64,000 bases of DNA from sequence record NC_027395.1. One strand, written 5' to 3'. Each line of letters begins with the position of its first letter. The stretch's first letter is position 1. Under the pieces are notes generated by a model. It saw nothing but the letters and a program-made list of their open reading frames with translations. It had not been told where the DNA came from and did not search any database. This stretch comes from Escherichia phage vB_EcoP_SU10. Positions 3,743 through 43,034 of the stretch are shown piece by piece. The position numbers and the translations under genes were made by a program.

Positions 3743-5986
3743 ATGGCTAAGCAAAAATATAGTGAAGAGGTGTTGGACGAGTTACGTGTTGACCTTCAAC
3801 GTCGTTTTAATTATGCTCAAGGCTACGTGGACATGGCTGTTAAGGGCTATGCTCGTGAAGCTTGGGAATATTTCTATGGTAACTTACCTGCACCAGTAAC
3901 TGCTGGCAGCTCTAGTTGGGTAGATCGTACTGTTTGGGAATCTGTTAACGGTACATTGCAAGATATTATTAACGTATTCTGTTCTGGTGATGAAGCAGTT
4001 ACTTTCGTAGCTGACAACCAACAGGATTCTGATGCTGCTGATGTAGCAACTAAATTAGTTAACCAAATTCTTCTGCGTGACAATCCGGGATACAATATTA
4101 TCTCTTCTGCTGCACAAGAATGTCTGGTTACTCGTAACTCTTTTATCAAGTATTATTGGGATGAACAAACTTCTACTCAAACTGAAGAAGCTGAAGGTGT
4201 ACCACCGGAAGCATTGGCTGCATATGTTCAGGGATTAGAAGCTGGTGGACTCAAGAATCTGGAAGTCTTCACTGAAGAAAATGAAGACGGTACAGTCGAT
4301 GTTAAAGTTACTTACGAACAAACTGTTAAACGTGTGAAAGTTGAATATGTTCCTTCAGAGCAAATCTTTGTTGATGAACATGCTACCTCTTTTGCAGATG
4401 CACAATACTTCTGTCATCGTGTACGTCGTTCTAAAGAAGATCTGGTTGCTATGGGCTTCCCTAAAGATGAGATTGAAGCATTCAACGACTGGACAGACAC
4501 GATGGATACCACTCAATCTACGGTTGCTTGGTCTCGTACTGACTGGCGTCAGGATATTGATGCTGATATTGGTACAGATACCGAAGATATCGCTTCTATG
4601 GTTTGGGTTTATGAGCACTATATTCGTACTGGTGTTCTAGATAAGAATAAAGAGTCTAAACTCTATCAGGTTATTCAAGCTGGTGAGCATATCCTTCACA
4701 CTGAAGAAGTAACTCACATTCCGTTTGTAACCTTCTGTCCGTATCCGATTCCGGGTTCCTTCTATGGTCAATCGGTCTATGACATTACGAAAGATATTCA
4801 AGATTTACGTACCGCGTTAGTTCGTGGTTATATTGATAACGTCAACAATGCTAACTATGGTCGATACAAAGCTCTTGTTGGTGCATACGACCGTCGCTCT
4901 CTGCTTGATAACCGTCCCGGTGGAGTGGTTGAAATGGAACGTCAGGACGCTATTGACCTGTTCCCATACCATAACCTACCTCAAGGTATTGACGGCCTTC
5001 TAGGCATGTCTGAGGAGCTTAAAGAGACACGTACCGGTGTAACCAAACTAGGCATGGGTATCAACCCTGATGTGTTTAAGAATGATAACGCTTATGCAAC
5101 CGTAGGCTTGATGATGAATGCTGCACAGAACCGCCTCCGTATGGTATGTCGTAACATTGCTCACAACGGTATGGTTGAACTGATGCGTGGTATTTACAAT
5201 CTTATCAGAGAAAATGGTGAAGTTCCTATTGAGGTACAAACCCCTCGTGGTATGATTCAGGTAAATCCGAAACAATTACCAGCTCGTCACAATCTTCAAG
5301 TTGTTGTAGCTATCTCTCCTAATGAGAAAGCAGAACGTGCACAGAAACTGATTAGCTTGAAACAGCTGATTGCAGCAGATGCACAGTTAGCACCTCTCTT
5401 TGGTTTGGAGCAAGACCGTTACATGACTGCACAGATCTTTGAGTTGATGGGTATTAAAGATACACATAAATACCTTCTGCCTCTGGAACAGTATCAGCCT
5501 CCAGAACCTTCTCCGATGGAAATCCTCCAGCTCGAGATGACTAAAGCTCAGGTTGAGAACGTACAGGCTTCTTCTCAGAAGATGATTGCTGATGCATTCG
5601 ACCAACGTGAACGTACTACATTCGAACAGCAGAAAGCTGCGGATGAATTAAGTCTGCGTCAGGAAGAGTTGCAGTTCAAGCAAGAAAATGCAGCAGATGC
5701 AATGACTCTGGAAAACCGTAAAGAAGATAACAATGCTACTCTGGAACAAGCTAAGCACAAGTTAGCTCTTATGCAACAGCAGGTCCGTCAGTATGAATCT
5801 GTACTGAAAGAATTGCAGATGGTTATGTCTCATCAGGTAGACCAAGAGAAGATTGTTCAGCAAGCTCGTGTTCAGGACAAAACTTTGGAACTCCAAAAGA
5901 AAGAAGCTAATGTAACTAAGAAAGAGCAACAAGCTTCTCTCAAAGATTCACGGATTCCAGGCAAACGTCTTGGAAGTAAAAAGTAA
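3743..5986 (+). CDS. Portal protein
   Basis: 747 aa; directly downstream of terminase; coiled-coil Q/E-rich C-terminus; synteny-based. Confidence 0.75.
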   Translation: MAKQKYSEEVLDELRVDLQRRFNYAQGYVDMAVKGYAREAWEYFYGNLPAPVTAGSSSWVDRTVWESVNGTLQDIINVFCSGDEAVTFVADNQQDSDAADVATKLVNQILLRDNPGYNIISSAAQECLVTRNSFIKYYWDEQTSTQTEEAEGVPPEALAAYVQGLEAGGLKNLEVFTEENEDGTVDVKVTYEQTVKRVKVEYVPSEQIFVDEHATSFADAQYFCHRVRRSKEDLVAMGFPKDEIEAFNDWTDTMDTTQSTVAWSRTDWRQDIDADIGTDTEDIASMVWVYEHYIRTGVLDKNKESKLYQVIQAGEHILHTEEVTHIPFVTFCPYPIPGSFYGQSVYDITKDIQDLRTALVRGYIDNVNNANYGRYKALVGAYDRRSLLDNRPGGVVEMERQDAIDLFPYHNLPQGIDGLLGMSEELKETRTGVTKLGMGINPDVFKNDNAYATVGLMMNAAQNRLRMVCRNIAHNGMVELMRGIYNLIRENGEVPIEVQTPRGMIQVNPKQLPARHNLQVVVAISPNEKAERAQKLISLKQLIAADAQLAPLFGLEQDRYMTAQIFELMGIKDTHKYLLPLEQYQPPEPSPMEILQLEMTKAQVENVQASSQKMIADAFDQRERTTFEQQKAADELSLRQEELQFKQENAADAMTLENRKEDNNATLEQAKHKLALMQQQVRQYESVLKELQMVMSHQVDQEKIVQQARVQDKTLELQKKEANVTKKEQQASLKDSRIPGKRLGSKK

Positions 5987-5995
5987 GGACGTCGA

Positions 5996-6232: not shown

Positions 6233-7308
6233 TGCCACAAGATAATTATATTGACCCGAACGATTTTAAATCTTTCCTCCAACTGGATGACCTGAAAGGT
6301 TCTTTCAAAGAAGAACTCGGTCGATTAGAATCTGAACAAGAACCAGAAGTGGACATTGACGATGAGTTCCCGGAAAAAGACGGTGACGATTTCGACTTTG
6401 ATACCGACCTTCTCGGTGAAAGCGATGAGCTTAAGTTCGAAGATGAAGATGGTTGGGAAGATCGTGAAGAGGAAGGCGAAGTCGAAGAAGATGAAGATGA
6501 ATCCTCTGAAGCAGAAGAACAAGAGGAAGAAGATTCAAGCGATGCAGAGTATGAAGATGATTCTGCTGACGGTGAAGGTGAAGTCTTTGATGTAGACTAC
6601 GAAACCGTTATCACCCTTCCTGATGGACGTGAGATGACTATTGAAGAACTTTCTAATGGCTATCTTACTGGTGCTGATATGACAGAACGAGAATCAACTC
6701 TTCAGCGTCATATGGAAGCATTCGAGGAACGTGTAGTAGGTTTGAAGGATGTATTAGAACTAGCGTCTTTAGAAGCAGACCGAGTAATTGAAGATTATAA
6801 CGGTTTTGATTGGGACAAGCTTGCAGTAGAAGATCCTCAAGCATATGTTGAAAACAAACGTTTCCTAGAGAAGTACACAGCTCGCCGTCAACAGCTTGAA
6901 CAGGCTCAGGTCCGTATTAAGCAGGAAGCAGCAGCTAAAGAGCAGGAAGCTTTCCAAGCCAAGAGTATTGAATGTGTTAATATTCTGAAACGTGAGATTC
7001 CAAATTGGGATGAAAACTTATATCAAAACTTAATGCAATACGCAATTGACTTAGGTGCTACTGAAGAAGAAGTATTGAAGGAAAACCGTCCGTCTATTTT
7101 CCTAGCTCTCCATAAAGCATACCAATTTGATAAAGGTAAGCAACAGGTGATGGCTAAGATTAAACGTCCCGGTGCTCCACGCAAGGTTGTGAAGTCTGAT
7201 GCTGCAAAGTCTCGCACTTCCAATAAGCCCGACAACGCTAAGGTTGCCAAGGCATTCGCAGAGGGTCGCGTTAGTCACGAAGACGCATTCAAATTCCTCG
7301 TAGATTAA
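6232..7308 (+). CDS. Scaffolding protein (putative)
   Basis: 358 aa, extremely D/E-rich N-terminal half, helical C-terminus; located between portal and capsid. Confidence 0.6.
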   Translation: MPQDNYIDPNDFKSFLQLDDLKGSFKEELGRLESEQEPEVDIDDEFPEKDGDDFDFDTDLLGESDELKFEDEDGWEDREEEGEVEEDEDESSEAEEQEEEDSSDAEYEDDSADGEGEVFDVDYETVITLPDGREMTIEELSNGYLTGADMTERESTLQRHMEAFEERVVGLKDVLELASLEADRVIEDYNGFDWDKLAVEDPQAYVENKRFLEKYTARRQQLEQAQVRIKQEAAAKEQEAFQAKSIECVNILKREIPNWDENLYQNLMQYAIDLGATEEEVLKENRPSIFLALHKAYQFDKGKQQVMAKIKRPGAPRKVVKSDAAKSRTSNKPDNAKVAKAFAEGRVSHEDAFKFLVD

Positions 7309-7349
7309 TCGACAAATTAAATTATTAATAGTATAGGAGCTAACATAAC

Positions 7350-8408
7350 ATGGCTAATCCAACTTTATTTGTATCGTATGACCAGAATGGTAAAAAACTT
7401 TCTTTTGCTAACTGGATTTCTGTTCTGTCCCCTCAGGATACTCCGTTCGTATCTATGACCGGTAAAGAGTCTATCAACCAGACTATCTTTAGCTGGCAGA
7501 CCGATGCACTGGCAAGCGTTGACGGTAATAACGCACACGTCGAAGGCTCTCGTGCTGAAGACGGTGAAATGAAACCGACTGTTATCAAATCTAACGTTAC
7601 TCAGATTCTGCGTAAGGTTGTTCGTGTTTCTGATACTGCTAACACCACCGCTAACTACGGTCGTGGTCGTGAACTGATGTATCAGCTGGAGAAGAAAGGT
7701 AAAGAGATCAAGCGTGACCTCGAGAAAATCCTTCTGTCCGGTCAGGCTCGTACCGATGTTCTGGCTGACCAGTATCTGACTAACTCCGCAGCTGATCCTG
7801 CTGTTGCTGGTCTGAATGACACCCATGCAGCTCGTAAGACTGGTGCATTCCAGTTCCTGTGTGCTCACGGTGGTCTGGCTGGTGGCGTTGTTGACAAGAC
7901 CAAGAATGGTCCTGCTGACCCGGATACTGGTGCAGTAACTGTTAAAGTTGCACAGAATGCTTCTAACCCGACCACTAACATCGGTTTTGATGAAGCTGAT
8001 ATCTTTGATATGACTCTGCAACTGTACACCGCTGGTTCTGAAGCAGATATCATCATGATTAACCCGGCTCATGCTAAGATCTTCGCTGGTCTGCAAGAAA
8101 ATACTCAGGGTTCACGTAAGCGTATCTTTGAGAACACCAAGCAGTTCATCTACGAAGTTAACAGCATCACTGACCCGCTGGGCCAGAGCTACAAAATCAT
8201 CGTTAACCGTTGGATGCCTACCGATGCAGTTTACTTCTTCCGTAGCGCTGACTGGACTCAGATGGTTCTGCGTGCTCCGAAACGTACTGAACTGGCTAAA
8301 GACGGTTCTTACGAGAAGTGGATGATTGAAATGGAAGTTGGTCTGCGTCACCGCAACCCGTATGCTTCTGGCGTACTGTTCACTGCTGCGGGAAAGGCGG
8401 CGGCGTAA
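7350..8408 (+). CDS. Major capsid protein (putative)
   Basis: 352 aa; position after scaffold; followed by a strong terminator; no motif verification possible. Confidence 0.7.
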   Translation: MANPTLFVSYDQNGKKLSFANWISVLSPQDTPFVSMTGKESINQTIFSWQTDALASVDGNNAHVEGSRAEDGEMKPTVIKSNVTQILRKVVRVSDTANTTANYGRGRELMYQLEKKGKEIKRDLEKILLSGQARTDVLADQYLTNSAADPAVAGLNDTHAARKTGAFQFLCAHGGLAGGVVDKTKNGPADPDTGAVTVKVAQNASNPTTNIGFDEADIFDMTLQLYTAGSEADIIMINPAHAKIFAGLQENTQGSRKRIFENTKQFIYEVNSITDPLGQSYKIIVNRWMPTDAVYFFRSADWTQMVLRAPKRTELAKDGSYEKWMIEMEVGLRHRNPYASGVLFTAAGKAAA

Positions 8409-8414
8409 CAGTAG

Positions 8415-8933
8415 ACACTGTCTACTGTTAGCCCTGCGTCTTTAGCAAGCCTAGAGACAGGGGCTACTCGGCAGTTCACTGCAAGCGCGGAGAAAAGTGA
8501 TGGTTCTACCGAAACAACTGGCTTTACTTGGTCAGTGACAGGAGGTGGTTCTATCACTCAGTCGGGTTTGTATACTGCTCCGAGTGCGTCTCAATCCACT
8601 GATGTATCCATTACTGCAACTTTAGAAGGTGTTTCTGGTACAGCAATCATTTCTGAAATTGTTGCTCCTGCTCCTACTATTGTAGCTAAGGGTCCAATTA
8701 CGGGTAAAACTGGTGGTTCTTCCACTAACTTCACTACCATGTTTACTGTAACTAATTCTACTGCTGCGGATTACACGTTTGTTGTAACCCCTACAGAAGC
8801 TGGTACAGTAAGCGCAGCTGGTGCGTTAACCTTAGATGCTGCTGCAAGTGGCGAAGTTACTGTTCAAGCAAGTTTGACAGCTGATCCGTCCATCAATGCA
8901 ACATGCACTTTTACTGGTGTAACACCTGCTTAA
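8415..8933 (+). CDS. Ig-like (Big_2-type) two-domain region lacking a canonical start for its first domain
   Basis: In-frame translation from 8415 gives TVSPASLASLETGATRQFTAS...TGFTWSV...ITATLEGVSGTAII (Big_2-like); first in-frame ATG/GTG/TTG is GTG 8535. Confidence 0.45.
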   Translation, partial: TLSTVSPASLASLETGATRQFTASAEKSDGSTETTGFTWSVTGGGSITQSGLYTAPSASQSTDVSITATLEGVSGTAIISEIVAPAPTIVAKGPITGKTGGSSTNFTTMFTVTNSTAADYTFVVTPTEAGTVSAAGALTLDAAASGEVTVQASLTADPSINATCTFTGVTPA

Positions 8934-8940
8934 AACTAGA

Positions 8941-8970
8941 CCCTGCCTTCGGGCGGGGTTTTTTCGTTTT
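8941..8970 (+). terminator. Rho-independent terminator
   Basis: CCCTGCC-ttcg-GGCGGGG hairpin (UUCG tetraloop) followed by TTTTTTCGTTTT. Confidence 0.7.
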
Positions 8971-8992
8971 AAGACCTATACAAGCAAGTGTG

Positions 8993-9001
8993 TAATGTAT
9001 A
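8993..9001 (+). promoter_or_regulatory. TAATGTATA promoter-like element
   Basis: Exact 9-mer 33 nt upstream of ATG 9035; same 9-mer recurs upstream of other genes. Confidence 0.5.
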
Positions 9002-9034
9002 TTCTTTGTCTACATATAACAAGGAGGACAACCT

Positions 9035-9787
9035 ATGGCAATGCCAGATGTTCAATACCCCATCAATACCTATGGGTGGCTAAAGAAGGCCGTGGCCCTC
9101 TGGGCAGATAGGGACGACGATGAATTTGTTAATCAAATTCCAAACTTTATTAACTTTGCAGAGAAAGAGATTTATCGTAACTTACGTATTCCTCCTCTGG
9201 AAAAAGAAGTGTATTTAGATATTAAAGATGGAGTAGCTTACATTCCTCCTGATTACTTAGAAGCTCAATGGATGATGAGAGCCAAAGATGGCACAATCTT
9301 CCAAGTAACCTCTCCTGAAGAGATTAGCTATCGTAGACAGCATGGAACAATTAACCCATCTCACTGGAATAACCAACCTGTCAACTTTGCTCGTTTCGGT
9401 AGTCGTTTCATTTTCTACCCTAGCATCGAAGCAGATACTCCGTACTACCCTGATGATGGAAGCCCTTTGATTCCAGCAGAAAACTCAGTGATTCTTAGCT
9501 ATTATGCAGACCCACCGGAATTCCATGAAGATACAGATACTAGTACTATTCTTACTATAGCACCAGAACTTCTTCTGTACTTCACCCTACGTCATGCTTG
9601 TCTCTTTGTTCAAGATGATAATGGTGTTCAGAAATGGTCAGCATTAGGAAAAGCTATCCTTGATGAAATGGTAGAACAGAATAAGAAACAAGAGTACTCA
9701 GGTTCACCTATCGCAATTCCGAATAACATGACTCGACTTCAGAGCAGCTTGCCTGATATTTATGGTATTCGTACTTCTCGTGTATAA
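9035..9787 (+). CDS. Hypothetical virion protein (250 aa)
   Basis: First gene after capsid terminator and promoter-like element; GGAGGA RBS. Confidence 0.6.
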   Translation: MAMPDVQYPINTYGWLKKAVALWADRDDDEFVNQIPNFINFAEKEIYRNLRIPPLEKEVYLDIKDGVAYIPPDYLEAQWMMRAKDGTIFQVTSPEEISYRRQHGTINPSHWNNQPVNFARFGSRFIFYPSIEADTPYYPDDGSPLIPAENSVILSYYADPPEFHEDTDTSTILTIAPELLLYFTLRHACLFVQDDNGVQKWSALGKAILDEMVEQNKKQEYSGSPIAIPNNMTRLQSSLPDIYGIRTSRV

Positions 9788-39482: not shown

Positions 39483-41327
39483 TTAGTGTGTATGCATCCA
39501 GTTAAGTCCAATCTGACAATCAGATGCCAGAGGACATTCCATGTTCAGATACTCGCCAGCTTTCTTAACACAAAGCTCAGTGTGCTCTTTGAGTTTCTGT
39601 ACATCATTACGGTTTACTGAGAATTGACCTTCATCGTGCATATCAATTACCTTAGCACAACGAACCTTATCTTTCTCAATCCACTTGTTAAGGAACATCA
39701 TAGCATATTTCATAACAACAGCACCAGCACATTGCAGGAGTGTGTTAAGGGCTTTATGAACCATAACCTTACCAGTGGCATCCCGTCTCATTGTAATCTT
39801 ACGACCATCAACTCCAATCAAGTATCCTTGAGCAGCTTTCTCTGTCATACGATCAATGAGGATTGCAATACATGGGTTCTCTGCTAAGAAACGTGCTCGC
39901 ATCACTGAACCTTCGTCAGCCCCACCACCTACAATTGAACCAAGCTTAGCATCGCCAGCACCGTAGTTGAATGCATAGATAAACGTTTTAGCGTTGTCAC
40001 GAGTAGGAAGACCAGCAAGTTTCTGGTTATGGGAGTGGATATCACCTTCAAGGAGAATATCACGATACATAATAGCAGAAGCTAAACCACGTTCTGCCAG
40101 AGCTTTCTTAGCTGGGTTGTTCTCTTCTATTGCCTCAGCAAGCATATCCCTACACTCTTTAATGAGGTAGTGAGCTAGCATACGAAGTTCAAGTCCAGAA
40201 CCATCATACCCTAAGAACACTTCTTTACCAGCGGGTATGTAATATTTGTAAGCACCTATAGGTTTGTCTTTCTTCCCCGGCTTACCTTTCTCGTAAATTA
40301 CGTTAGTACCTTTTCGTATATAACAACCATCAGGAACAACGTTAGTAATAACGAAAGGACGAGAGTGATCACTGTCTGAGTTATAGTCAGACTCAAACAA
40401 ACTGCGACACTCGTGACCAAACAGACCACGGGAGGGAATATTAACCACGATACGATGTTTGAATCGAAAAGTCGGCGTAGCGCAGCTGTTAGCTTCTGCC
40501 GAAAGTTTACCATCTTCGCGTTCCTTTGCTATAAGTCCACTGATAAGACCTAGCCTGTGAGCCGCTACAACGCGTCTCTTAAGCAAACTTCCGACACTCC
40601 CTAGCTCACCCCCTAACCCTTCTTCAAGAGTCTCCTCGAGGTTTGTAGGAGCTGTAGGCCACTTGTTTGATGTGGCTAGTGCTTTCTTAATCTCATCAAA
40701 CGTTACAGGATTACGGCGATTAGGGTTCAACCCCAAACCAAATACGTAAGCCTTCATGTAATTCTTAGTCTTAAACCTGAAATGCTTTTCTAAGAACTTC
40801 TTAATATCAGCGTCAACCATCTCGGCTGTCTGCTTCTGCTTAGCATTGCCTCGCATCCAAGCAGTATACCATGCTTGGTATGTTCCATACTTTCTCATAT
40901 CTTTCTTAATTTCGAAAGTATTCCAAGGCTTCTTAGACACGTTAAACTCTGGAGGAAGAAAGCCCTCATCCATAAGAGCTTCTTTAACTCGTGCATCTTT
41001 CGATGGGTCAAAGTCTACGTATTCAACACAGGTGAAAGCTCCACCAATATCTTCTCTCTTCAGCCCAACCCTATCACAATAGGCTTGAGGCCACTTCTGT
41101 AAAGCTCCAGACTTCTTAAACGGCTTCATGTAAGTAGAGCCGTCTAATCTCATCTTAGGTAAGAGAGGAATCAACTCTCTGTCAATATTAACAATAATCT
41201 CTTTAAGGAGGTGAACATACCACCGAGCATTTCTTCGGTTGAAACTCACTCCGTGCTTTGCTTGCTTAGAGATTATATCAGCGACAGTCATCTCTGTCAA
41301 AAATGGAAGAGCGTCCGGGTTGCTCAC
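39483..41327 (-). CDS. DNA polymerase, family A (polymerase domain only)
   Basis: Motif A LGYDGSGLELR, motif B RDNAKTFIYAFNYGAG, motif C MHDEGQ. Confidence 0.85.
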   Translation of the reverse strand: MSNPDALPFLTEMTVADIISKQAKHGVSFNRRNARWYVHLLKEIIVNIDRELIPLLPKMRLDGSTYMKPFKKSGALQKWPQAYCDRVGLKREDIGGAFTCVEYVDFDPSKDARVKEALMDEGFLPPEFNVSKKPWNTFEIKKDMRKYGTYQAWYTAWMRGNAKQKQTAEMVDADIKKFLEKHFRFKTKNYMKAYVFGLGLNPNRRNPVTFDEIKKALATSNKWPTAPTNLEETLEEGLGGELGSVGSLLKRRVVAAHRLGLISGLIAKEREDGKLSAEANSCATPTFRFKHRIVVNIPSRGLFGHECRSLFESDYNSDSDHSRPFVITNVVPDGCYIRKGTNVIYEKGKPGKKDKPIGAYKYYIPAGKEVFLGYDGSGLELRMLAHYLIKECRDMLAEAIEENNPAKKALAERGLASAIMYRDILLEGDIHSHNQKLAGLPTRDNAKTFIYAFNYGAGDAKLGSIVGGGADEGSVMRARFLAENPCIAILIDRMTEKAAQGYLIGVDGRKITMRRDATGKVMVHKALNTLLQCAGAVVMKYAMMFLNKWIEKDKVRCAKVIDMHDEGQFSVNRNDVQKLKEHTELCVKKAGEYLNMECPLASDCQIGLNWMHTH

Positions 41328-41343
41328 TTTATACTCCTTTAAA

Positions 41344-41757
41344 TTATTGGTAAAGTAAATCTGTAAATGCTTGGTTATCTTCTACTACATCCAATGATGT
41401 GGAATCAACAGCATATGACCTCATTGCTGCATTTGTTTGTGCCCAAGTAGATGGAGAATAAGAAGACCTAATCTCACGAGGCTGCTCTCGTACCAGATGG
41501 GCCACAACCCTCTGATTAGCAACTTCTTCTCTTTCTCTGATAGCTCTCTGAATGTAGGCCAGCTTCATGCCCCAAGCTTCTTCAAACTCTTGAGGGTGTT
41601 TATCACTGATAACCACATATTGACGTTCAGGAATACCAGAGCGAATTTCTGACAATAATTCATGGAACAAATCCAGTTCGTGCTCAGTGAGATTCATTTC
41701 GATATCATCCCACTTGAGAACTAAGAAACGGTTTTGGTGTCTAGCTGGTAATGGCAT
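41344..41757 (-). CDS. Hypothetical protein (137 aa)
   Basis: ORF only. Confidence 0.5.
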   Translation of the reverse strand: MPLPARHQNRFLVLKWDDIEMNLTEHELDLFHELLSEIRSGIPERQYVVISDKHPQEFEEAWGMKLAYIQRAIREREEVANQRVVAHLVREQPREIRSSYSPSTWAQTNAAMRSYAVDSTSLDVVEDNQAFTDLLYQ

Positions 41758-41760
41758 AAC

Positions 41761-42045
41761 TCAACCTCTTGGGAATGGCATCAAAAATTCCACAGCAGAT
41801 TTAATTTCATTATTGATTCTTGAATCACGATAAGAGATAAACTTACCTTTGCTATCACGTAACATCACATTAGTTCTGGCTGTTTTGTGAGGGAGTAATG
41901 TGACACTAGTTGGAATAGCATCAACCCCTACAGCGTATTTGTCAATAGTCTTACTTTCAGCCAACAGATAAGACCAAGTACGCGGTTTCTGCTCCGGGCG
42001 GTTAGGGTATGTGTCCCGAATCTGAACCATAGCTAACTTATTCAT
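41761..42045 (-). CDS. Small protein, tandem paralog A (94 aa)
   Basis: Shares TARTNV.LR..GKFISY...AVE.L.PFP.G with the adjacent gene. Confidence 0.5.
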   Translation of the reverse strand: MNKLAMVQIRDTYPNRPEQKPRTWSYLLAESKTIDKYAVGVDAIPTSVTLLPHKTARTNVMLRDSKGKFISYRDSRINNEIKSAVEFLMPFPRG

Positions 42046-42046
42046 A

Positions 42047-42301
42047 TTAAACTCCTTTAGGGAATGGGATGAGATTTTCTACTGCAACACGGAAAGATTT
42101 TTCTACGTTCTTATTCTTATAAGAGATAAATTTTCCATCAGCTCCTCGAAGGAGTACGTTAGTGCGAGCTGTATTTGGGGTTTGTTGAATCATAGAACGA
42201 ATGATGTTCTCTGAACCTCTATGCTTATTGGTGAATTTCCAACTGATAGTTTTACCGGTACGAGATACATCAATAATATTTACAATTTTTACAATAGACA
42301 T
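42047..42301 (-). CDS. Small protein, tandem paralog B (84 aa)
   Basis: See paralog A. Confidence 0.5.
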   Translation of the reverse strand: MSIVKIVNIIDVSRTGKTISWKFTNKHRGSENIIRSMIQQTPNTARTNVLLRGADGKFISYKNKNVEKSFRVAVENLIPFPKGV

Positions 42302-42342
42302 ATTTATTACCTAAGAAATTTAATTTGGTTTATATAAAAGAA

Positions 42343-42366
42343 AAGGCCACCTGATTAGGCAGCCTT
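42343..42366 (-). terminator. Candidate terminator (minus strand)
   Basis: Imperfect hairpin AAGGC..CCT/AGG..GCCTT followed on minus strand by TTCTTTTAT. Confidence 0.4.
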
Positions 42367-42370
42367 TGTT

Positions 42371-42664
42371 CTAGAGACGAAGCCAAGTTTGATAGTCAGC
42401 TTCAGTGTAATGGTTGTTTCGAGAGTTGTTTTTCATTTCCTTGAGAGTAGCTCTCAGGTCAATGTTATGCTCTCTCCTTGTTCTATTCGGGTCTGTATCT
42501 TCTAATAGATGTGAGTGATCACTACAAGAGTAGTGCTTATAGTGGTCCCTGTATCCTCTACTTGGAGAATACTTGGTCATTAAAGTTGCAACTCTTTTTA
42601 CACCCTCTGCTTTACAGAATTTACAATAAGTGTGAATTGTACATCTTTTTGTTTCTGCTGACAC
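42371..42664 (-). CDS. Cys/His-rich small protein (97 aa), possible zinc-binding
   Basis: CTIHTYCKFC and HYKHYSCSDHSH clusters. Confidence 0.5.
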   Translation of the reverse strand: MSAETKRCTIHTYCKFCKAEGVKRVATLMTKYSPSRGYRDHYKHYSCSDHSHLLEDTDPNRTRREHNIDLRATLKEMKNNSRNNHYTEADYQTWLRL

Positions 42665-42674
42665 TATAACCTCT

Positions 42675-42989
42675 TTATGAGCTTAAAGCTCCTTTGCGTG
42701 CTCCAGCTGCTTTTCCAGCTCGATCACCACTTTTGCCGCCGTTTGAACGGTTTGAGCTGACTGATTCAACACGTAAGTTGCTTGACGCATTAGAGCCTCC
42801 AGACTTGACAGCTCGTTTGTGTCCAACGTCTTTACCTCTGACAGCAGCTTTTCCATCGCGCTTTTCAACGATGCGACGTGCACGGTGGCGCTGAGCATCT
42901 CCGCTCTTGCTCCCAACGCCTGTCTCACCACGGGCAATTGCGGTACGTCTTTCTTGTGCATAATCTCTCTTTCCTACATGATCTGCCAT
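42675..42989 (-). CDS. Basic G/S/K/R-rich low-complexity protein (104 aa); alternative overlapping frame exists
   Basis: AGGAG RBS 6 nt upstream of ATG and TAATGTATA element 37 nt upstream; overlaps a 92-aa coiled-coil ORF (42683-42961) in another frame. Confidence 0.45.
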   Translation of the reverse strand: MADHVGKRDYAQERRTAIARGETGVGSKSGDAQRHRARRIVEKRDGKAAVRGKDVGHKRAVKSGGSNASSNLRVESVSSNRSNGGKSGDRAGKAAGARKGALSS

Positions 42990-43025: not shown

Positions 43026-43034
43026 TATACATTA
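43026..43034 (-). promoter_or_regulatory. TAATGTATA promoter-like element (minus strand)
   Basis: Exact 9-mer 37 nt upstream of ATG 42989; inverted repeat TCCTTA...TAAGGA in the leader. Confidence 0.5.

Follow-up and report, generated by a model that had tools for sequence, protein, structure and literature searches.

Two small adjacent open reading frames (ORFs) lie on the minus strand at positions 41761–42301 of a stretch of 64,000 nucleotides (nt) from the genome of Escherichia phage vB_EcoP_SU10 (NC_027395.1), called the window below. In the order of transcription they encode proteins of 84 and 94 amino acids (aa), and a gene for a family A DNA polymerase (PolA) follows downstream. A first-pass annotation, made from the letters alone, had described them as tandem paralogs with a common C-terminal core and divergent N-termini, preceded by a candidate terminator. 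The coordinates, the strand and the peptides that it quoted are exact, and the terminator is a hairpin with an 11-bp stem and a U-tract. By its sequence, the window is a SU10-like Kuravirus of the subfamily Gordonclarkvirinae. The region is 97% identical to that of Escherichia phages EcP-vB and ES17 and ~88% identical to that of phiEco32, and the order of the genes is the same in phiEco32, ES17, SU7 and WFI101126.

The similarity between the two proteins is far above chance; both ORFs are real protein-coding genes, and they are old tandem paralogs. Pairwise BLASTP found 22 of 40 C-terminal residues identical (E = 2e-15). Aligned over their full length, the proteins are ~36% identical; the N-terminal halves are divergent yet alignable, with a pattern M-x-x-V/L-x-x-V-x-I-x-D...W common to both. 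Each protein matched all 86 positions of the profile of family phrog_6814, the 84-aa protein with residues 1–84 (E = 3.1e-38) and the 94-aa protein with residues 1–94 (E = 1.6e-36). The signature of the family is T-A-R-T-N-V-x-[LIF]-[RK]-x3-G-[KR]-F-[IV]-S-[YF], followed by a helix and, close to the C-terminus, by L-x-P-F-P. Both window proteins have it; in 85 sequences, none of its columns falls below 90% conservation, and those for T, A, R, T, N, V, R, G, F, S and Y are (nearly) invariant.

Public databases already list both proteins as hypothetical (SU10_053/054, phi32_56/57, phrog_6814). The window proteins are members of phrog_6814 (phiEco32 gp56/gp57, SU10_053/054) and do not differ from it; no function is assigned to the family. 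The 94-aa protein matches SU10_053 at 100% identity, and the 84-aa protein matches a kuravirus protein at 96%. For coding sequences (CDS) 53 and 54 of SU10, the identity with the phiEco32 counterparts is 89% and 66% (PMC4281155). In an earlier comparison, phi32_56 and phi32_57 were listed as common to all phages of the phiEco32 subgroup, and BLASTP found no counterpart of them in 7-11 or GAP52 (PMC8948821 Table S2). The literature that we searched, to which the papers on the phiEco32 genome and on its temporal regulation did not belong, contained no relevant functional data on SU10_53/54-type genes, which appear in it solely as core or hypothetical ones. The first-pass annotation had spoken of a duplicated small-protein family of unknown function, and this description holds: the two are full-length paralogs within phrog_6814, and no tool assigned a function to them. 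The homolog search that it had proposed placed both in phrog_6814 and recovered the family from 97 phage records.

Some records carry other labels. Homologs of the 84-aa protein are called "autotransporter adhesin" in ES17 (L001 2408-2662), EC.W2-6, 172-1, XT32 and other GenBank records, and a homolog of the 104-aa protein encoded farther upstream is called "Cas8 protein" in Ptacy1479 (L003 2885-3199). Neither label was backed by any domain search. In particular, the 84-aa protein (isoelectric point 10.8) had no adhesin or autotransporter match in Pfam or NCBIfam even at E<=1.

Both paralogs are clearly under purifying selection. We calculated the ratio of nonsynonymous to synonymous substitution rates (dN/dS, omega) between kuraviruses by the Nei-Gojobori method, for the whole genes and for each gene split at the TARTNV motif. 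Whole-gene omega was 0.27-0.39 for the 84-aa copy; for the 94-aa copy most comparisons gave 0.08-0.12, and the pair that had diverged least gave 0.32. The constraint is distributed differently along the two genes. In the 84-aa type, the N-terminal half is fast-evolving (omega 0.17-0.7, with 1.2 in one pair) and the C-terminal half had omega of 0.03-0.23. The 94-aa type is constrained along its whole length, with omega of ~0.04-0.3 in both halves. Overall, the C-terminal halves of the two copies fell within 0.03-0.26.

The two genes are also tightly joined. They are 1 nt apart (TAA-N-ATG; junction sequence CCTAAAGGAGTTTAATATG), and the K-G-V codons AAAGGAGTT that follow P-F-P in the 84-aa gene double as the AAAGGAG Shine-Dalgarno sequence of the 94-aa gene. 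The ORF that comes next (137 aa) has its start codon 3 nt beyond the 94-aa stop, and the PolA gene begins 16 nt after that ORF (Table 1).

Table 1. Positions of the paralogous pair, its conserved parts and the neighbouring features, numbered as in the window
Feature	Position	Strand	Remarks
Upstream paralog, 84 aa	42047..42301	-	SU10_54 / phiEco32 gp57 type; isoelectric point 10.8; net charge +9.6
Core motif TARTNVLLRGADGKFISY of the 84-aa protein, residues 44-61	42119..42172	-	85-member alignments; predicted secondary structure
C-terminal P-F-P of the 84-aa protein	42059..42067	-	F and P invariant in the family; tail of low pLDDT
Downstream paralog, 94 aa	41761..42045	-	SU10_53 / phiEco32 gp56 type; isoelectric point 10.0; net charge +6.6
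Core motif TARTNVMLRDSKGKFISY of the 94-aa protein, residues 55-72	41830..41883	-	85-member alignments; model
Conserved C-terminal P-F-P of the 94-aa protein	41770..41778	-	Family alignments; model
Intrinsic terminator, hairpin and U-tract	42342..42367	-	~40 nt upstream of the 84-aa start codon
Phage-sigma (gp36-type) promoter, exact TAATGTATA	43026..43034	-	Sequence match; just after phoH, just before the 104-aa ORF
104-aa HNH-like protein, SU10_56, phrog_4590	42675..42989	-	First gene of the operon; very basic
97-aa ORF, SU10_55, phrog_9585	42371..42664	-	Lineage-variable insert between the HNH-like gene and the terminator; absent from phiEco32 and SU7
137-aa ORF, SU10_52 / phi32_54, phrog_11427	41344..41757	-	Possibly MazG-like
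Family A DNA polymerase, 614 aa, without exonuclease domains, SU10_51 / phi32_53	39483..41327	-	

The family is narrow. With tblastn we found it in 97 phage records, which without exception belong to phages of Escherichia or Shigella and in most cases have two copies in the genome. The number of records carrying a PolA at least 80% identical to that of the window is also 97; we compared the counts, not the identities of the records, and took their equality to mean that the family is present in every Gordonclarkvirinae genome of the collection. Word-indexed searches with either paralog returned kuravirus-like proteins only. When 1.84 billion cluster representatives were searched exhaustively with a HMMER profile, 30 matched; ~26 of these are stand-alone proteins of 79–103 aa with the same signature. 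Three long matches (572, 1106 and 554 aa) were rejected as spurious, having scored through 5–8 repeated short stretches; one of them holds kinesin-like repeats with GKEFISYRDS. No domain fusion was seen among the family members found.

A degenerate-codon scan for TARTNV-6-G[KR]F in one genome each of 185,579 bacterial and archaeal species returned 25 stretches and no confirmed member. These stretches were mostly from acyl-CoA carboxyltransferase-like genes (QRTARTNVEDLCDxGSF), the others being chance matches, and the best score with the hidden Markov model (HMM) of the family (E = 3e-4) belonged to a chance ORF. The corresponding scan of metagenomes gave 16 stretches, several of them from contigs already in the set, and a scan of IMG/VR returned Salmonella phage 7-11 itself and nothing else. 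From these searches, the family appears to be phage-only.

When the loci were searched with the family HMM, two tandem copies were found in Kuravirus, Suseptimavirus and the metagenomic locus L018 and one copy elsewhere; the tandem copies of SU7 and L018 are likewise 1 nt apart. In a neighbour-joining tree of these short proteins, with its deep nodes unresolved, the upstream copies of Kuravirus and Suseptimavirus grouped together (77% bootstrap). The downstream copies did not form one clade, since the allele of KBNP1711 grouped with a metagenomic lineage. From this grouping, the duplication is old, and the downstream copy has probably been exchanged between phages.

Homologs with 30-45% identity to the window proteins were found in six more metagenomic lineages (7 loci on contigs of 53-108 kb from unrelated metagenomes), in single-copy or two-copy form. 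In all 7 loci, 0-5 small ORFs separate the family gene from a DNA_pol_A gene of ~610 codons downstream, and an ORF of 103-105 aa of the HNH-like type is found a short way upstream. In one of them, L016, the PolA region (6259-9475) was called as ORFs of 269, 457, 160 and 95 aa with HNH_3 genes nearby, which suggests that the polymerase gene there is split by homing-endonuclease or intron-like insertions.

In the window, the pair is in a middle operon for replication and nucleotide metabolism driven by gp36. The element TAATGTATA is a single-element promoter read by RNA polymerase carrying the phage sigma factor gp36. It is P56 of SU10 and P58 of phiEco32, located ahead of SU10 gene 56 and phiEco32 gene 58 (PMC8948821 Table S3), and SU10 CDS 25-68 form the middle class (PMC4281155). 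Transcription passes from the promoter through the 104-aa gene (SU10_56), the 97-aa gene (SU10_55) and the terminator to the 84-aa, 94-aa and 137-aa genes and PolA. The 104-aa protein is kept out to 7-11 and GAP52 with the motif D-H...GG-x-N...S-N-L, and its 7-11 homolog had weak matches to HNH-endonuclease PHROGs (E = 1e-4 to 5e-2); SU10_56 is probably a minimal HNH-like protein. The 137-aa ORF had a weak match to a nucleotide pyrophosphohydrolase PHROG (E = 0.02) and sits where 7-11 and GAP52 have their MazG-like gene, so it may encode a divergent MazG-like enzyme. Beside it, a 52-aa ORF that separates the gp56 and gp54 homologs in ES17, phiEco32 and WFI101126 (phi32_55 / ES17_50; L001 1960-2118, L002 1960-2118) is missing from the window at ~41757-41761. 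Its absence accounts for a 160-bp gap in the megablast alignments.

The same module is recognizable in Grimontviridae. In phage 7-11, the order is gp068 (HNH-like, phrog_4590), terminator, gp067, gp066, gp065, gp064 (MazG-like) and PolA. The C-terminal end of gp065 (89 aa) reads F-R-T-N-V-S-V-R-D-T-K-T-G-R-F-V-K-W, and the motif RTNV-x-[VI]-RD-x-K-T-G-R-F is kept in its relatives from GAP52, PKM.Lu.22.1 and ECO319P1. Both gp065 and Cronobacter phage GAP52_053 (phrog_23896) have the same position in the module and the same RTNV hairpin motif as phrog_6814, but they belong to a separate PHROG, and their motif is at the extreme C-terminus with no helix or P-F-P tail after it. Comparison of phrog_6814 with the gp065 family by hhalign gave a probability of 90% (E = 1.5e-6), with only 23 columns aligned. 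The phrog_6814 HMM ranked the four RTNV ORFs first in their loci (E = 8e-4 to 1e-2), and Foldseek gave a weak match to the GAP52 protein (E = 0.07). Judging from these alignments, the hairpin motifs of phrog_6814 and phrog_23896 are likely homologous, and the whole proteins may be.

In the terminator ahead of the pair (42367..42342(-)), five pairs of the stem are G-C, the loop has 4 nt, and TCTTTTAT comes after the hairpin; the folding energy is -16.3 kcal/mol, and a terminator is annotated at the same place in the SU7 and WFI101126 records. In 9 of 9 phrog_6814 lineages checked, the first family gene is preceded, at a distance of 30-40 nt, by an equally strong hairpin with a U-tract. The stems are unrelated in sequence across the nine lineages, so that the position is conserved and the sequence is not. 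Lineage-specific extra ORFs are always before the terminator, and none is between it and the family gene. Neither a TAATGTATA-like nor a sigma70-like site was found in the interval from the terminator to the 84-aa start codon; expression of the pair presumably depends on read-through. The published proteome of a SU10 lysate, in which 34 of 125 proteins (28% of those predicted) were detected, is in agreement with this: gp56, gp55 and PolA (gp51) were detected, and gp52-54 were not (PMC4281155 Table 2).

In Grimontviridae, the terminator comes after the HNH-like gene, and the RTNV-motif gene begins only beyond 1-2 further ORFs (7-11, PKM.Lu.22.1) or a stretch of ~130 nt that carries no annotation (GAP52, ECO319P1). 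From this, the terminator seems to be tied to the HNH-like gene and not to the phrog_6814 family. Past the terminator stem, several lineages that are otherwise very divergent look alike: the U-tract is followed by UUUCUUGUCUCU or a close variant in 7-11, L012 and L018 and by UUUUUUGUCUCU in L024 (the similar stretches are at L022 2150-2170, L012 ~5975-5990, L018 ~5690-5700 and L024 ~2250-2262). This similarity may reflect a conserved processing or ribosome-loading context, or a chance likeness of U-rich sequences. The sole Rfam match in the region was a sub-threshold one to Phe_leader (E = 0.31), which we took as chance.

A fold prediction, also proposed by the first-pass annotation, gave a confident model. 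For the 94-aa protein with an 85-sequence alignment, AlphaFold2 reached a mean predicted local distance difference test score (pLDDT) of 83, rising to ~92 at residues 61-80, and a predicted template modelling score (pTM) of 0.75. The predicted topology is beta1-beta2-alpha1-beta3-(beta4)-alpha2. TARTN leads into beta3 in this model, the return strand consists of G-K-F-I-S-Y, and confidence is low for the P-F-P tail. The model of the 84-aa protein has the same topology (pLDDT 74), with the core motif predicted as a loop and then a beta3-turn-beta4 hairpin. No significant match to the AlphaFold model was found in the PDB. Profile searches against Pfam, NCBIfam, PADLOC and PDB sequences gave no meaningful match for either paralog or for 32 family members.

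Two candidate relationships were rejected. An internal beta-beta-alpha duplication (V-x-I-x-D...W-S-Y against V-x-L-R-D...F-I-S-Y) was not supported by hhalign, which aligned only 5 columns of the N-terminal and C-terminal halves with a probability of 0.85%. The sequence R-D-S-K-G-K-F-I-S-Y bears what we take to be a superficial resemblance to D-E-L-G-R-V-V-I-P of AbrB/SpoVT (AbrB/MazE/MraZ motif D-x-x-G-R-[IV]-x-[IV]-P). The proteins matched no SpoVT_AbrB or MraZ profile and the model is not a swapped-hairpin beta-barrel, so we do not place them in the AbrB/MazE/MraZ swapped-hairpin superfamily.

Taken together, these results lead us to propose, tentatively and as a possibility that we would not put higher, that the pair is an accessory factor that binds nucleic acid or the replisome and acts as a homo- or hetero-oligomer. 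The proteins are predicted to be small, basic, two-layer alpha/beta proteins of the order beta-beta-alpha-beta-beta-alpha. The basic C-terminal half, made up of the TARTNV loop, the beta-hairpin, the helix and the flexible L-x-P-F-P tail, would be a constant binding module that contacts nucleic acid, a conserved component of the replication machinery, or both, and the N-terminal half would be a variable module. In phages with two copies, translational coupling would give near-equal amounts of the two proteins, which, to go by the tandem arrangement and the coupling only, would most likely form a hetero-oligomer; the single-copy relatives would form a homo-oligomer. Their role would be accessory to phage DNA replication or to the products of the operon, at a low level set by terminator read-through. 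The binding of nucleic acid or protein that the first-pass annotation had considered possible fits the strong positive charge predicted for both paralogs. Across the family, the C-terminal half has a median charge of +3.4, and the N-terminal half ranges from -6 to +6.

A bolder form of this proposal, which we consider doubtful, is that the TARTNV/RTNV-hairpin proteins are an unrecognised replication subunit specific to Gordonclarkvirinae-like and Grimontviridae-like phages, with a fold that has no solved relative. Such a subunit might serve as a polymerase adaptor or as a processivity or primer-handling factor, through L-x-P-F-P bound to a hub such as the host sliding clamp, or might be a self-regulating factor that sets how much transcription passes the conserved terminator into the polymerase genes.

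Several observations weigh against a replication accessory factor. Net charge is not universal, as 19% of the family members are acidic overall. In the Bruynogheviruses (LUZ24-like), whose PolA is 39% identical, no family member was detectable near the polymerase; the family protein is thus not an obligate partner of this type of polymerase. The synteny may be just an inherited gene order within one phage clade. Finally, gp53 and gp54 are absent from the proteins detected in the SU10 lysate (PMC4281155 Table 2), and the first-pass annotation had named lack of detectable expression as a result that would speak against its reading.

We regard this last absence as weak negative evidence, because the dataset, the sole SU10 proteome available, covered only 28% of the predicted proteins. 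Small proteins rich in Lys and Arg give few tryptic peptides. The absence is outweighed by the purifying selection on both genes.

Among the alternatives, the one that survives best is a host-directed inhibitor, that is, a takeover or counter-defence protein that blocks a host protein and whose variable N-terminal half tracks host variation. We consider it unlikely. Small phage-encoded inhibitors that combine a beta-sheet with a helix (phi29 p56, which inhibits Ung, T4 Dmd and T7 Gp2) are among the closest known systems for comparison. It would account for the rapid evolution of the N-terminal half of the upstream copy, where omega is up to 0.6-1.2 between kuraviruses, for the narrow, phage-only distribution, and for the polyphyly of the downstream copy within kuraviruses, where the grouping of the KBNP1711 allele with a metagenomic lineage suggests allele exchange. 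However, counter-defence genes are usually patchy and expressed early, and this family looks like a strict core gene, with as many records (97) as there are with a close PolA, and SU10_53/54-type genes are in the middle class. Its position in the replication module is kept across lineages of 30-45% identity and probably out to Grimontviridae, and its motif is nearly invariant in phages from gut, sewage and rhizosphere metagenomes, presumably of different hosts. A conserved partner fits better than a host-specific weapon, given that position and motif are conserved throughout the family, that the polar and basic residues of the motif hardly vary, and given the positive C-terminal half, the middle timing and the lack of cellular homologs.

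The constant position of the terminator raises another alternative, an RNA-binding regulator of the operon: an antiterminator or translational regulator that acts at the upstream terminator and controls transcription into the MazG-like and PolA genes. In its favour, no gene stands between the terminator and the family gene in any of the 9 phrog_6814 lineages checked, extra ORFs being placed only before the terminator; the proteins are also basic, and the mass-spectrometric detection of gp55 and gp56 and not of gp52-54 is consistent with an effective terminator. We nevertheless judge it improbable. The terminator of Grimontviridae follows the HNH-like gene and is apart from the RTNV-motif gene, the hairpin stems have no common sequence that could be a protein-binding site, and no Rfam element other than the sub-threshold Phe_leader was found. 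The proteins show no likeness to known antiterminator families. Membership in the groups of lambda N (arginine-rich motif) and of BglG/LicT (co-antiterminator domain) was rejected, there being no Pfam match, no common stem sequence and no Rfam element.

A clamp adaptor, in which the globular domain binds PolA or DNA and the L-x-P-F-P tail docks on the host sliding clamp or another hub, would provide processivity to a polymerase that has no obvious factor for it. The linkage of the gene to PolA, and the conservation of a C-terminal tail that is of low confidence in the model, point in this direction, as does the spacing of L-x-P-F, which we take to resemble the L-x-L-F spacing of the bacterial clamp-binding motif QL[SD]LF. 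But the tail ([x]-L-x-P-F-P) has no conserved Gln and has Pro at the position of the second Leu, the motif may just pack against the fold, and in kuraviruses the conservation of the tail is partly due to the overlapping Shine-Dalgarno sequence. We judge such an adaptor very improbable. The remaining explanation, that the ORFs are non-functional (chance ORFs or decaying duplicates) or are the "autotransporter adhesins" of some records, could appeal to that label and to the failure to detect the proteins in the SU10 proteome, and it is refuted for practical purposes by an omega well below 1, by intact ORFs in 97 phage records and in distant lineages, and by a strongly basic protein of 84 aa being too small for a passenger domain and a beta-barrel.

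Kuraviruses, ES17, SU10 and BASEL Bas86-93 among them, have found use in therapy or are under consideration for it, and phiEco32 serves as a model in work on phage-encoded sigma factors. To our knowledge, little is understood of their replication machinery, which is built on a polymerase that lacks exonuclease domains. Two small basic proteins that are strictly conserved, probably coupled in translation and encoded directly upstream of this polymerase make a plausible candidate for an accessory factor that is still missing. What the present analysis contributes beyond earlier knowledge is the paralogy, made explicit and shown to be old, together with the asymmetric constraint on the two copies, the narrow distribution in phages only and a confident fold model without solved relatives. 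It also adds the probable link between phrog_6814 and phrog_23896, the correction of misleading labels such as "autotransporter adhesin", and the conserved module of promoter, HNH-like gene, terminator, RTNV-protein, MazG-like gene and PolA. The gain is modest; it does not overturn the current understanding and will not surprise a specialist.

Two further observations concern neighbouring genes. Inside the 104-aa gene, the +1 frame holds a helical-looking alternative ORF of 92 aa (42683-42961(-)), and this frame is largely open in most relatives outside Grimontviridae. It is probably an artefact of composition, because the main frame is poor in codons with T at the second position. In the first 55 nt of the PolA ORF, on the coding strand, there is a perfect extended sigma70 consensus promoter (TTGACA, a 17-nt spacer ending in TG, and TATAAT; 41272-41300(-)). 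The identical 29-mer is present in ES17, phiEco32, Ptacy1479, NJ01, L007 and WFI101126 and missing in KBNP1711, ECBP2 and SU7. It could be an internal promoter, a site of RNA polymerase binding or origin priming, or a coincidence of the coding sequence.

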